From IMG/VR virus record IMGVR_UViG_2526164688_000030: 11,137 nt of DNA; one strand, 5' to 3'. The notes beneath the pieces are model-generated. The model was not told where the DNA came from. It was given only the letters and a program-made list of their open reading frames with translations, and did no database searches. Numbering within the stretch: position 1 is the stretch's first letter; each line of letters opens with the position of its first letter. The translations under genes were made by a program, and so were the position numbers. This DNA comes from a virus (Duplodnaviria > Heunggongvirae > Uroviricota > Caudoviricetes). Positions 3,969-6,933 of this stretch are shown piece by piece.

Positions 3969-4470
3969 AATTCCATCCAGCTTTTTGTTGGTATTGCTGT
4001 CGATACGCAAGTTTGAAAGCAATTGCTTTTTCTATAAGTTCGTCAGTTTCACGATCCACTACGGCAGGATCAGCAAAAAGCAGTCCGGACTCCACCACAT
4101 CGCCATATTCTTTGTTTAACCCGGCGATCATGTACGTGATGCTTTTTCCGTCACTAATTTCACGATACAACCTGAAATCATTAATCCGGATAGCCTCCAT
4201 AATTGCAGGCACTAGCGCCGTGAACTTTTCACGCTTATCCCTGGTGTCGATAGCCTTCCAGCGTTCGAATATCTTCACTCGATTAACGCCAAGCGCTCGC
4301 TGATCAACCGCGCCACCTTCATCTGTGACACGCTGAACATCGATGTTCGGGCGCTCTTTCAAAGCCCAGAATGCTTCAGTGATTAATATCGTCGCCTGCT
4401 CCTGTGTCATTCCTGGTCGACATATCCAGGCATCCAGAGCCTCACGAGCCTGTTCAGGAGTGATTTTCAT
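3949..4470 (-). CDS. Hypothetical early-right protein (173 aa) in the cII/YdaT-like position between the Cro-like gene and the replication gene
   Basis: ATG at 4470 with G-rich SD (GGGGCGG) ~7 nt upstream; overlaps the dicC-like stop by 17 nt and the replication gene start by 20 nt (translational coupling). No confident family recognition. Confidence 0.6.
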   Translation of the reverse strand: MKITPEQAREALDAWICRPGMTQEQATILITEAFWALKERPNIDVQRVTDEGGAVDQRALGVNRVKIFERWKAIDTRDKREKFTALVPAIMEAIRINDFRLYREISDGKSITYMIAGLNKEYGDVVESGLLFADPAVVDRETDELIEKAIAFKLAYRQQYQQKAGWNYEPSFC

Positions 4471-4681
4471 TGTTCAACCGCCCCGCCCGCTTCGTCTTAC
4501 GATATTCGTCATAAACCTTGGGATCATACAGAAGCTCCCCGCCAGATGCCTCCTGTAGACGCATCGCGCGACCTTCAGGAACCAGTATCCCCCAAGCAGC
4601 AACACTTGCCAGTCTCACTCCTGCGGCATTGGCAAGCTTTGTTTTGCTGCCAAAAAAAGTAATTGCGTCAACTTTAAGCAT
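4454..4681 (-). CDS. dicC: DicC-like Cro-type small DNA-binding regulator (75 aa)
   Basis: ATG at 4681 with strong SD (AGAGGGGG, 5-nt spacer); protein (MLKVDAITFFGSKTKLANAAGVRLASVAAWG...RLQEASGGELLYDPKVYDEYRKTKRAGRLNNENHS) closely resembles recalled E. coli Qin DicC; divergent from the dicA-like gene. Confidence 0.8.
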   Translation of the reverse strand: MLKVDAITFFGSKTKLANAAGVRLASVAAWGILVPEGRAMRLQEASGGELLYDPKVYDEYRKTKRAGRLNNENHS

Positions 4682-4694
4682 CAAAGCCCCCTCT

Positions 4695-4712
4695 TGTTAG
4701 ACTTTTCTAACA
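4695..4712. promoter_or_regulatory. Operator-like palindrome TGTTAGA-cttt-TCTAACA in the dicC/dicA divergent promoter region (putative DicA/DicC binding site)
   Basis: 7-bp perfect inverted arms 4695-4701 / 4706-4712; overlaps the dicC RBS/promoter region; a near-identical palindrome recurs at 5205-5224. Confidence 0.5.
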
Positions 4713-4761
4713 TTATTGTGCGCGGGATATCTAAGTCAAGAAAAATTAGAATTACCTAACT

Positions 4762-5169
4762 ATGGATACAAGAACCCTAGGCCAGCGAGTTCTGGCGCGA
4801 CGAAAAGAATTACGCTTAACACAACGAGAAGCTGCGCGCCTCGCTGGAGTTGCTCACGTCACAATTTCACAATGGGAAAGAGACGAAACCCAGCCAGTCG
4901 GAAAACGATTGTTTGCTTTAGCGGATGCTCTGAAGTGCTCACCTACATGGCTAATGTTTGGTGACGAAGACAAGGCACCAGTGCCTGCACAAGAACTTCA
5001 TGTGGAAACAGAGCTAACTCCCAACCACAAAGAATTGATCGAATTATTCGATGCTCTTCCATCTTCCGAGCAGGAAGCCTTGCTGTCTGAAATGCGCGCA
5101 AGAGTAGAAAACTTCAACAAACTCTTCGAAGAAATGCTTAAAGCGCGTAAAAATAAATCAATAAAATAA
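4762..5169 (+). CDS. dicA: DicA-like HTH (XRE/P22 C2-type) prophage repressor, 135 aa
   Basis: N-terminal HTH (LRLTQREAARLAGVAHVTISQWERDETQPVGKRLFALADALKCSPTWLMFGDEDK) and C-terminal block (ELIELFDALPSSEQEALLSEMRARVENFNKLFEEMLKAR) closely resemble recalled K-12 DicA; divergent from the Cro-like gene. Confidence 0.85.
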   Translation: MDTRTLGQRVLARRKELRLTQREAARLAGVAHVTISQWERDETQPVGKRLFALADALKCSPTWLMFGDEDKAPVPAQELHVETELTPNHKELIELFDALPSSEQEALLSEMRARVENFNKLFEEMLKARKNKSIK

Positions 5170-5204
5170 CATTCTTTTCAAGTGATTAGTTGCGCCCACT
5201 CTTT

Positions 5205-5224
5205 TTGTTAGACCAATCTAACAA
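5205..5224. promoter_or_regulatory. Second operator palindrome TTGTTAGA-ccaa-TCTAACAA, between dicA and ydfA-like; putative operator of the dicB-operon promoter
   Basis: 8-bp perfect inverted arms 5205-5212 / 5217-5224; 36 nt after the dicA stop and ~114 nt before the ydfA-like ATG. Confidence 0.5.
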
Positions 5225-5337
5225 AAAACACTTGCCTATCATGTTAGGTTATTCTAAATTACTTTCCATCAAGACACCGCACGGTGTTCTCAGCAAACAG
5301 TTCCGCTACCCCGGCGTTAAGGGGAAATGAGGTCAGC

Positions 5338-5493
5338 ATGGATACTATCGATCTTGGCAACAGCGAATCTCTGGTATGTGGCGTGTTCCCCAACCAGGAC
5401 GGCACGTTCACCGCGATGACGTATACCAAAAGCAAAACGTTTAAAACCGAAAATGGTGCCCGTCGCTGGCTGGAAAGAAACTCAGGTGAGTGA
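5338..5493 (+). CDS. ydfA: YdfA/YdaF-like small protein (51 aa) of the dicB operon
   Basis: ATG 5338 with purine-rich SD (GAGGT); protein MDTIDLGNSESLVCGVFPNQDGTFTAMTYTKSKTFKTENGARRWLERNSGE matches recalled Qin YdfA; stop TGA at 5491-5493. Confidence 0.75.
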   Translation: MDTIDLGNSESLVCGVFPNQDGTFTAMTYTKSKTFKTENGARRWLERNSGE

Positions 5494-5494
5494 T

Positions 5495-6070
5495 ATGGAT
5501 TTCGACACAATCATGGAAAAGGCTTACGAAGAATACTTCGAAGGCCTTGCCGAAGGCGAAGAAGCTCTCAGCTTCAGTGAGTTTAAACAGGCACTCAGAA
5601 TAAGAATGTGCTCTCACAATGACGCGGAGCACAAATATGAGAAGCAAAATCAGACCGCAGAAAATTTTGTTCTGGAACCCGGAGAAACGCTTTTCAAAAT
5701 TCCCGTTACGTGCCCCATTTGCGGTTTTACATCAGAAGAACTTGACGACTCCTGTAACAATCAGGAAACAACCAAGTATGTCGAAGATGATACCGAGTGC
5801 GCACGAAGAACGATTATATCCACGAGTCCAAACTCCAGGGCCAATAAATCTCACTTTGAGAGGGTGATTAATCCACTCCCCCAAACCAATAAAAAAGATG
5901 CCGGAGGACAAAAAACCCAATGGAACAACGGGATATCTGTCAAAAAAAGACGTTCCATTAAAGACAAACAACGCAGCGCCAACAACTGTAAGCGCTTTAT
6001 ACCAGTAATCAATTTTCATGTTCTTAAGCGGATTTATTGGTGGTTGCGACATTGCTTAATGAATCCTTAA
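5495..6070 (+). CDS. ydfB: YdfB-like protein; N-terminus MDFDTIMEKAYEEYFEGLAEGEEALSFSEFKQAL; ORF stays open for 191 codons but the C-terminal extent is uncertain
   Basis: ATG 5495 is 1 nt after the ydfA stop with SD CAGGTGAG. N-terminal ~35 aa match recalled YdfB. The K/R/N-rich 3' half and rare codons suggest the distal part may be an antisense shadow of the minus-strand ORF 5732..6052. Confidence 0.45.
   Translation: MDFDTIMEKAYEEYFEGLAEGEEALSFSEFKQALRIRMCSHNDAEHKYEKQNQTAENFVLEPGETLFKIPVTCPICGFTSEELDDSCNNQETTKYVEDDTECARRTIISTSPNSRANKSHFERVINPLPQTNKKDAGGQKTQWNNGISVKKRRSIKDKQRSANNCKRFIPVINFHVLKRIYWWLRHCLMNP
5732..6052 (-). CDS. Candidate small membrane protein (106 aa, about three predicted TM segments) antisense to the 3' half of the ydfB-like ORF
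   Basis: ATG at 6052; translation has three hydrophobic stretches (ALTVVGAALFVF, VVPLGFLSSGIFFIGLG, ALGIIFDILGCFLIVTGVV). Only a weak SD (GGA 13 nt upstream). Cannot be resolved against the overlapping plus-strand ORF from sequence alone. Confidence 0.3.
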   Translation of the reverse strand: MSQPPINPLKNMKIDYWYKALTVVGAALFVFNGTSFFDRYPVVPLGFLSSGIFFIGLGEWINHPLKVRFIGPGVWTRGYNRSSCALGIIFDILGCFLIVTGVVKFF

Positions 6071-6091
6071 AACTGTGGTGATTTTAAGGAT
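6063..6091. other. Perfect 10-bp inverted repeat ATCCTTAAAA-(ctgtggtga)-TTTTAAGGAT
   Basis: Arms 6063-6072 / 6082-6091; overlaps the stop of the plus ORF and lies just upstream of the minus-strand ORF start; candidate RNA hairpin or palindromic binding site. Confidence 0.35.
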
Positions 6092-6329
6092 ACCACCTCG
6101 CCTGACGTGGTTAAAAGCAGGCACACAACACGAAAGCGCACGGCGAAGTTCGTCTCACTGTACGGTGTCGTTAAATTTAATTCGACCGTGCGCTTCCGGT
6201 TGTGGCAACCCGCAAAATGGCGCGGCGGTAAGTATGGCGGGGTTATTCCTTCCCCGTTGAGGACACCGGGTTGTCAGGTTGACCATACGCTTAAGTGACA
6301 ACCCCGCTGCAACGCCCTCTGTTATCAAT

Positions 6330-6387
6330 TTTCTGGTGACGTTTGGCGGTATCAGTTTTACTCCGTGACTGCTCTGCCGCCGTTTTT
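6330..6387 (+). ncRNA. dicF: DicF small regulatory RNA (Hfq-dependent sRNA processed from the dicB-operon transcript; ftsZ antisense regulator)
   Basis: TTTCTGGTGACGTTTGGCGGTATCAGTTTTACTCCGTGACTGCTCTGCCGCCGTTTTT matches recalled E. coli DicF almost base-for-base, with 3' GC-rich stem plus U-tract, in the expected position between ydfB/C-like and dicB. Confidence 0.8.
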
Positions 6388-6556
6388 AAAGTGAATTTTG
6401 TTATGCGGTGAATGCGGCTAAGCGCACGCGGAACAGTTAAAACCAAAAACAGTGTTATGGGTGGATTCTCTGTATCCGACGTTAATTGTTAACTGGTTAA
6501 CGTCACCTGGAGGCACCAGGCACTGCATCACAAAATTTATTGTTGAGGACGCGATA

Positions 6557-6745
6557 ATGAAAACGTTATTACCAAACGTTAATACGTCTGAAGGTTGTTT
6601 TGAAATTGGTGTCACTATCAGTAACCCTGTATTTACTGAAGATGCCATTAACAAGAGAAAACAAGAACGGGAGCTATTAAATAAAATATGCATTGTTTCA
6701 ATGCTGGCTCGTTTACGTCTGATGCCAAAAGGATGTGCACAATGA
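6557..6745 (+). CDS. dicB: DicB cell-division inhibitor (62 aa; MinC-dependent in E. coli)
   Basis: ATG 6557 with SD GAGGA (7-nt spacer); protein MKTLLPNVNTSEGCFEIGVTISNPVFTEDAINKRKQERELLNKICIVSMLARLRLMPKGCAQ matches recalled Qin DicB; stop TGA at 6743-6745. Confidence 0.85.
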   Translation: MKTLLPNVNTSEGCFEIGVTISNPVFTEDAINKRKQERELLNKICIVSMLARLRLMPKGCAQ

Positions 6746-6933
6746 ATTCAGCATTTGCGCTTGTTCTGACAGTTTTTCTTGTTTCCGGAGTGCCAGTTGA
6801 TATTGCAGTCAGTGTTCACAGGACAATGCAGGAGTGTATGACTGCAGCAACCGAACAGAAAATTCCCGGTAACTGTTACCCGGTCGATAAAGTTATTAAC
6901 CAGGATAATATCGAAATCTCGGCAGGTCTTTAA
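6742..6933 (+). CDS. ydfD: YdfD-like small membrane protein (63 aa; reported lysis protein in E. coli)
   Basis: ATG 6742 overlaps the dicB stop (ATGA); N-terminal hydrophobic segment MNSAFALVLTVFLVSGVPV; matches recalled Qin YdfD. Confidence 0.75.
   Translation: MNSAFALVLTVFLVSGVPVDIAVSVHRTMQECMTAATEQKIPGNCYPVDKVINQDNIEISAGL

Follow-up and report, generated by a model that had tools for sequence, protein, structure and literature searches.

The locus analysed here raises the question of whether two near-identical palindromes that flank a dicA-like repressor gene are operators, and whether the product of that gene acts through them on its own immunity switch as well as on a neighbouring operon. 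The window, by which we mean the whole stretch of DNA that was analysed, comprises 11,137 nucleotides. In the initial annotation the two palindromes were described together with a third, degenerate pair of half-sites, and the layout was read as that of a repressor controlling both the immunity switch and the dicB-operon promoter. As judged from sequence comparison, the palindromes are very probably OR/OL-type operators of a lambdoid (Qin-type) immunity region, recognized by a P22 C2-like repressor of the DicA type.

To place the window in its genomic context, a 1.2-kb stretch of it (4400-5600) was compared with E. coli genomes. It is 100% identical in E. coli DEC9B, and regions covering at least 80% of this query were found in 554 of 5,426 complete E. 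coli genomes. In DEC9B the element adjoins rspB, rspA and ynfA, and its upstream genes are rem, hokD, ydfU and ydfT. Since the element has these neighbours, the window is, by sequence, the E. coli Qin prophage, located at the insertion site that it has in K-12 (rspB side); its left arm is intact, and its immunity allele differs from that of K-12.

The genes of the region and the features described below are collected in Table 1. Initially the three genes around the palindromes had been named as dicA-like, dicC and ydfA, and these names were borne out by the domain matches listed there. The repressor shares 57% identity with K-12 DicA over 132 aa (E 4e-55) and matches it in length and architecture, and residues 1-71 align without gaps with the DNA-binding domain of P22 C2 (E 1e-18). 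In a Pfam search of the dicA-like protein, the part C-terminal to the HTH gave no match to a peptidase or cleavage domain or to any other Pfam domain. The dicBF operon is complete downstream of the repressor gene, and 3' of ydfD it is followed by the genes for an 823-aa exonuclease, an excisionase and an integrase. An Rfam scan of the window returned DicF only, with no match at the palindromes.

Table 1. Sites, genes and promoter elements of the immunity region, in window coordinates
Feature	Position	Strand	Description
Site 1 (Oc homologue)	4694..4713		TTGTTAGACTTTTCTAACAT = TTGTTAGA-CTTT-TCTAACAt; mismatch at last base only
Orphan right half-site	4730-4734		TCTAA; adjoins dicC -35; from sequence
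Site 2 (Oa homologue)	4743..4762		AAATTAGA-ATTA-CCTAACTA; 10/14; adjoins dicA ATG, overlaps candidate dicA -10
Site 3	5205-5224		TTGTTAGACCAATCTAACAA = perfect TTGTTAGA-CCAA-TCTAACAA; 14/14; in 5202..5227
Site 4	5241..5260		ATGTTAGG-TTAT-TCTAAATT; 10/14; in spacer and -10 of putative dicB-operon promoter
dicC-like Cro-family gene	4454..4681	-	75 aa from the ATG annotated in DEC9B; P22_Cro; 84% identical to K-12 DicC
dicA-like repressor gene	4762..5169	+	135 aa; HTH_3; N-terminal HTH homologous to P22 C2 DNA-binding domain
Regulated operon	5338..6933	+	ydfA, ydfB-like ORF, DicF, dicB, ydfD
ydfA	5338-5493	+	DUF1391
ydfB-like ORF	5495-6070	+	
DicF RNA	6331-6382	+	Rfam, 72.5 bits
dicB	6557-6745	+	
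ydfD	6742-6933	+	
Predicted dicC promoter	4712..4739	-	-35 TTGACT (4739-4734), 16-bp spacer, -10 AATAAT (4717-4712); from consensus scan
Candidate dicA -10	4747..4752	+	TAGAAT; 9 nt before ATG, inside site 2; from sequence
Putative dicB-operon promoter (PL analogue)	5232..5260	+	-35 TTGCCT (5232-5237), 17-bp spacer, -10 TAAATT (5255-5260); from conservation

Subsequently, the frequency of the palindromes was compared with chance. When the 11,137 bases were searched for TTGTTAGA-N4-TCTAACAA with up to three mismatches, sites 1 and 3 were the only matches (0.04 expected). Site 1 agrees with the consensus TTGTTAG-N6-CTAACAA at 13 of 14 positions, and site 3 lies within perfect arms of 11 nt (5202-5212 and 5217-5227). 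Of the core TTAG-N6-CTAA the window contains exactly four copies (at 4697, 4746, 5208 and 5244), against 0.10 expected from whole-window shuffles, and all four cores sit in the two intergenic regions that flank the dicA-like gene. With shuffling confined to these AT-rich regions (245 bp in total, 59% AT), 0.012 cores were expected and none of 3000 shuffles reached four. Because the expectations from pattern searches and shuffles lie far below the observed counts, the palindromes and the third site are regarded as real and non-random. In the same prophage of DEC9B, no further copy of the core was found in 19.2 kb, for instance near rem. The same dyad motif is thus present at both the PR/PRM-like and the PL-like region, with two sites in each and none elsewhere in the 11-19 kb examined.

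These results also bear on the number of sites. The degenerate pair TTAGA-ATTAC-CTAAC at 4746-4760 is present, but it reads better as 4743-4762 with a 14-bp core, which is the geometry of the other sites. The two palindromes and the third pair described initially were therefore real, whereas the count of two plus one has to be replaced by four sites and a half-site, the site at 5241-5260 having been missed. In the dicC-dicA region a full middle operator was not found: the left half is no better than background, and only a right half-site is present there, with distances of 24 bp to the right half of site 1 and 25 bp to the right half of site 2. Judged by its sequence, this orphan half-site may be a degenerate middle operator (OR2 or 'Om'-like). 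It reads CCTAAG or TCTCAA in the corresponding other allele groups.

A comparison with the operator regions of Qin-type prophages had been suggested as a check, and in pairwise comparison all four sites align base for base with K-12 Qin sites, with positions that agree within 1 bp. The counterpart of site 1 is Oc (TTGTTAGTCATAACTAACAA), a 20-nt inverted repeat for which DicA binding was seen in an in-vivo repression assay (Yun et al. 2012, PMC3441716), and a single A-to-C change in Oc abolishes this binding (PMC3441716). The counterpart of site 2 is TTTAGCATTAGCTAAC, which lies beside the dicA ATG, and those of sites 3 and 4 are ATGTTAGCTATAGCATACAA and ATGTTAGTCATGGCTAATCT. In the same in-vivo assay DicA did not bind Om and Oa, which had also been proposed as sites (PMC3441716). 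Because Oa is the K-12 equivalent of site 2, site 2 is by analogy the least certain DicA operator of the four. Operator-like sequences in both the dicC-dicA and the dicA-dicBp region were reported by Bejar et al. (1988), as restated in PMC10448788, and a statement of three operators per region is attributed to Bejar et al. (1986/1988) as cited in PMC10448788 and PMC3441716. Taken together, the match of site 1 to an operator validated in vivo (PMC3441716), the alignment of the other sites with K-12, the complete operon downstream and the conservation described below support the proposed layout, in which one repressor would control the immunity switch and the dicB-operon promoter.

The two loci share the chromosomal site, the gene order (dicC leftward, dicA rightward, then ydfA-DicF-dicB rightward), identical outer half-sites TTGTTAG/CTAACAA and the overlap of Oc with the -10 of dicC. 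They differ in their repressors, which are only 57% identical, and in the left arm (exonuclease, xis, int), which is intact in the window. Site 3 is a perfect 11+11 palindrome in the window and also perfect in Citrobacter, whereas it is degenerate (11/14) in K-12. The intergenic DNA around the sites has diverged, whereas the ydfA leader past the promoter is nearly identical. A further difference was found at the base that adjoins the spacer, which is a purine in most half-sites of the window type, termed group A (TTAGA/TCTAA), and a pyrimidine in 12 of 12 half-sites of the K-12 group (TTAGY/RCTAA). A simple cross-immunity with K-12 was tempered after this tabulation of half-sites. As the base next to TTAG differs systematically, the sequences suggest that the window and K-12 alleles may still be hetero-immune.

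We then related the sites to promoters. The predicted dicC promoter and site 1 align column for column with the K-12 dicC promoter and Oc; in K-12, Oc overlaps the -10 of this promoter, and the dicC start has been mapped by 5'RACE (PMC3441716). In the window, site 1 covers the predicted dicC start and shares 2 nt with the leftward dicC -10. The consensus promoter scan made no call at the putative dicB-operon promoter (8/12 matches), and its assignment therefore rests on conservation: a CTTGnC and a TAAnnT block, 17-18 bp apart, are conserved across every allele group. No start site of dicBp was found in PMC10448788, and the location of DicA binding at dicBp in K-12 is listed as unknown or low-evidence (PMC7567609). 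The 20-mer of site 3 ends 7 nt upstream of the putative -35, and the right half of site 4 doubles as the -10 while its left half covaries with the repressor allele. As site 4 lies within the spacer and the -10, it would be the most directly occluding site. Ahead of dicA no Shine-Dalgarno motif was found in the sequence. By analogy with lambda cI from PRM and with paaR2, the leaderless forms of which are described in PMC8630535, this lack and the candidate -10 so close to the ATG suggest a near-leaderless dicA mRNA.

To examine conservation, 28 loci were compared, consisting of seven E. coli alleles and 21 loci from other genomes, among them E. ruysiae, E. albertii, Citrobacter, Enterobacter, Rahnella, Symbiopectobacterium, Superficieibacter and Buttiauxella. 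Lack of conservation in homologous immunity regions would have spoken against the operators, and the opposite was found: across genera the positions of the sites are fixed and the half-sites are conserved, while the spacers drift and the half-sites covary with the repressor allele. Among the alleles of TTGTTAG specificity (the window, E. albertii, two Citrobacter with 73-74% protein identity, the K-12 type, Rahnella and Symbiopectobacterium), the sites agree in position within 1 bp, half-sites and promoter hexamers are kept, and central spacers and flanks are variable.

At least five allele groups carry distinct half-sites at these fixed positions, with changes at recognition-helix residues 33 and 37. 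Alleles with V33 and Q37, as retained in the window protein, go with TTAG/CTAA sites, and alleles with S33 and L37 go with TTGAG/CTCAA at the same positions. For sites 1, 3 and 4 (left half), the window and K-12 types (AHVTISQ and SHVSVSQ in helices 2-3) have TTGTTAG...CTAACAA, and the TTGAG type, with VSGSSISLWESD in helices 2-3, has ATTGAG-TTTT-CTCAAT. The TTGTTGAG type (SHATISLWESD) has TTGTTGAG...TTAACAA and the ATAACTT type (SSVSVFKWE) has ATAACTT..GTTAT. In the CCTTAG type, where helix 3 is as in the window and helix 2 is different, the sites read CCTTAG...CTAAGG. In the complex of P22 C2 with its operator, the bases are contacted by V33 and Q37, and the half-site TTAAG is arranged around an uncontacted 4-bp centre (PMC5175364). 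The covariation thus falls on the residues that are expected to make contacts. Compared with sites 1, 3 and 4, site 2 shows less variation among allele groups, and this suggests a contribution of promoter or start-codon constraints; the conservation of site 2 may partly reflect the dicA promoter and start.

In lambda-type switches, Cro and repressor use common operators. The HTH of DicC, a protein of the P22_Cro family, also differs between allele groups with different operators, and the comparative data therefore cannot say which protein uses which site. The sites are probably also bound by Cro-like DicC. That they are mainly targets of DicC, or that DicC alone acts at sites 2 and 4, would fit this covariation and the failure of K-12 Oa to bind DicA (PMC3441716), but we consider it unlikely. 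DicA binds in vivo to K-12 Oc, whose half-sites are the same (PMC3441716), and deletion of dicA in K-12 derepresses dicBp 22-fold, while deletion of dicC does not (Ragunathan et al. 2023, PMC10448788). Moreover, the residues that covary occupy positions known to contact bases in the C2-type repressor. A reading with DicC as a ligand complements the model of DicA operators rather than replacing it.

Two further explanations concern the palindromes as such. The perfect 11-bp stem at 5202-5227 lies 36 nt after the dicA stop codon and folds in both strands, with z-scores of -3.1 and -2.8 in an 81-nt context, as might be seen if it were an RNA hairpin (a dicA terminator or a processing or stability element) whose likeness to the upstream site is secondary. 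This is highly improbable, given that the K-12 homologue of site 3 is a poor palindrome and yet keeps its half-site bases, and that in Citrobacter the half-sites are retained with a freely varying spacer between them, a pattern of DNA recognition and not of stem maintenance; the motif also recurs at three promoter-linked positions. Least probable of all, and in our view scarcely tenable, is an origin of the sites as chance AT-rich palindromes, through conservation of overlapping promoters only, or as targets of host nucleoid proteins (H-NS/Cnu, IHF). The AT content of the intergenic regions, the overlap of sites 2 and 4 with -10-like hexamers and the effect of the Cnu variant CnuK9E with H-NS on this region in K-12 (PMC3441716) would be in line with such an origin. 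Chance, however, did not produce four cores in any of the intergenic-only shuffles, sites 1 and 3 are the best conserved and yet lie largely outside the promoter hexamers, and a switch of half-sites with the repressor allele would be unexpected for the site of a host factor.

With the sites taken as DicA operators, the following mechanism is proposed. A dimer of the DicA-like repressor would bind the 14-bp cores TTAGA-N4-TCTAA, flanked by TG/CA, through its P22 C2-type helix-turn-helix. As site 1 covers the -10 and the start of dicC, a dimer at this site would block the leftward dicC promoter, so that dicC, the ydaT-like gene and the replication genes would be shut off; by analogy with K-12, occupancy of site 1 probably also permits or activates transcription of dicA. 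Sites 3 and 4 bracket the -35 and fill the spacer and the -10 of the putative dicB-operon promoter, and dimers at both would thereby silence ydfA, DicF, dicB and ydfD as well as exo, xis and int further along. Site 2 and the orphan half-site would be weak and would likely serve autoregulation or be used preferentially by DicC to turn dicA off, and this turn-off would complete a bistable switch. The sequence data show that the sites exist, where they lie, that they are not random, that they are conserved across genera and covary with the repressor, and that one of them is homologous to a site with in-vivo binding data; from this we infer physical binding by the protein of this allele, the assignments of the dicA and dicB promoters and starts, and what site 2 and the half-site do.

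Release from repression was considered by analogy as well. K-12 DicA is reported to be without the Ala-Gly bond needed for RecA-mediated cleavage, and to be relieved instead by the antirepressor Rem (PMC10448788). Since the window repressor has no cleavage domain detectable with Pfam and rem lies upstream in DEC9B, relief probably occurs by an antirepressor or by flipping of the switch, as described for K-12.

Compared with the lambda OR/OL system, the region has divergent repressor and cro genes, repeated dyads that overlap the PR-like and the putative PL-like promoter, the logic of a bistable switch, and a PL-like promoter that would lie 3' of the repressor gene and point the same way. It differs in that two clear sites per region and one orphan half-site take the place of three full sites, and in that only 511 bp separate the OR-like from the OL-like region. 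The sites of the window are spaced by 49 and 36 bp centre to centre, and not arranged as three tandem sites about 23-24 bp apart. We know of no cooperative binding by the DicA-like repressor.

With P22 C2, the window repressor shares a homologous DNA-binding domain in which V33 and Q37 are kept, and the operators share 5-bp half-sites, a 4-bp central spacer and a 14-bp core. The P22 operators follow the consensus ATTTAAGATATCTTAAAT (ATTTAAG-N4-CTTAAAT; structure 2R1J), so that the half-site is TTAAG in P22 and TTAGA/TCTAA in the window. DicA-type proteins further differ from C2 in being 135 aa long, with no Pfam cleavage domain found C-terminal to the HTH. The PaaR2/YdaS/YdaT region of prophage CP-933P (PMC8630535) is likewise a cryptic lambdoid switch, with Cro-like and YdaT (CII-like) genes leftward of the repressor, palindromic repeats in the OR-like and PL-like regions and a leaderless repressor gene. 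Its repressor family and operator consensus, however, are unrelated (four 18-bp palindromes of the GTTTAGTAA type, set at equal intervals), and a toxin-antitoxin pair is embedded in its operon (PMC8630535).

The Qin/P22-type immunity layout is known, as descriptions of it in K-12 go back to 1986-88 (cited in PMC10448788 and PMC3441716), and the locus is another allele of it; the understanding of lambdoid switches is unchanged. What the analysis provides is a map at sequence level, with four sites and a half-site, for a common and uncharacterised Qin immunity allele. By comparative footprinting it also indicates the expected place of DicA binding at the dicB-operon promoter, for which the K-12 location is listed as unknown. 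The map may help to design reporter and EMSA work on the control of the division inhibitors DicB and DicF.

More speculatively, the base adjoining the spacer, the only one at which the window and K-12 half-sites differ consistently, could along with helix-3 residues 31, 34 and 35 be the whole discriminator of immunity. Alternatively, repressors of the window and K-12 types could cross-bind, with co-resident Qin-like prophages jointly silencing each other's dicB and DicF. A related idea is DicA-mediated looping between the OR-like and OL-like regions over the 511 bp. We hold these possibilities to be rather doubtful.

Some minor observations concern secondary structure and complementarity. An intrinsic terminator at 5202-5227 was considered and rejected, as the stem is AT-rich, neither strand has a U-run and a terminator scan made no call. 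Of the hairpins in the ydfA leader only the second was evaluated, the first having been misaligned by MAFFT. Sites 2 and 4 are mutually complementary, with 89% over 18 nt.

The same recognition helix, VAHVTISQWERDETQP, was found in the window repressor (4762-5169) and in the repressors of loci L004 (959-1366) and L012 (1201-1605), which represent the alleles of E. coli NCCP 15739 and Enterobacter hormaechei. Despite this identity, the operators of the latter two alleles read CCTTAG...CTAAGG, compared with TGTTAG...CTAACA in the window, and their repressors differ from the window repressor in helix 2 (SQAALGK versus TQREAAR). Since helix 3 is shared while operators and helix 2 differ, this sequence comparison suggests that residues outside helix 3 read the outer operator bases.

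At the dicC promoter an orphan operator half-site was detected (see table); its distance to the matching half is 24 bp for operator site 1 and 25 bp for operator site 2. The equivalent position reads CCTAAG and TCTCAA in alleles having those operator types. The orphan half-site may be a degenerate OR2/'Om' site.

Features at the dicC promoter, the dicA 3' end and the ydfA leader. L001 and L007 are compared loci with K-12-type alleles; other positions refer to the window.
Feature	Sequence	Position	Remark
Orphan operator half-site	TCTAA	4730-4734	adjoins dicC -35
Post-dicA hairpin	GATAACATCATCAATGAGTTATC-TTTT	L001 2271-2300	
Post-dicA hairpin	GATAACGCAATCAATGCGTTATC-TTTTT	L007 1071-1100	
ydfA-leader hairpin 1	ACACCGCACGGTGT	5274-5287	
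ydfA-leader hairpin 2	CCCC-GGCGTTAA-GGGG	5309-5324	conserved GTTCCGCTA precedes

Upstream of dicA, a Shine-Dalgarno sequence was absent in all alleles examined, and a -10-like hexamer, TAGAAT, is located 9 nt upstream of the ATG (region 4743-4764). By analogy to lambda cI and paaR2, the dicA mRNA may be leaderless or near-leaderless. At the other end of the gene, K-12-type alleles harbor a hairpin followed by a T-run immediately 3' of the dicA stop codon, with compensatory changes between L001 and L007, and this element looks like a dicA terminator. No equivalent was present in the window allele, and because this terminator-like hairpin is missing, transcription of dicA may continue into the control region of the dicB operon.

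Directly 3' of the dicB-operon promoter, the ydfA leader (5274-5324) is near-identical between immunity alleles and contains two small hairpins. The stem of hairpin 2 varies with compensation in Citrobacter, Enterobacter and Superficieibacter (CCCTG/CAGGG, GCC/GGC, GCCT/AGGC), and compensatory pairs amounted to 2/4 in the alignment. An Rfam scan of the window returned no family match for these hairpins. Their position directly after a PL-like promoter recalls that of nut or put antitermination sites.

Among the remaining genes of the prophage, positions 1-2342 comprise a partial IS2 (IS3-family) transposase gene followed by a gene for a DUF4209/DUF7380 protein, both inserted past the replication-module genes (DUF977, 339-aa protein). 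The DUF4209/DUF7380 gene is possibly accessory or defence cargo; in the annotation of E. coli DEC9B the DUF4209 CDS spans 1,788 bp and is longer than the 493-aa ORF listed for the window. A 191-aa ORF (5495-6070), for which a Pfam search gave no match, has a start coinciding with that of the short K-12 ydfB. RefSeq lists it for DEC9B as a pseudogene, a truncated ydfB, but for another strain as a hypothetical protein gene of 576 bp.
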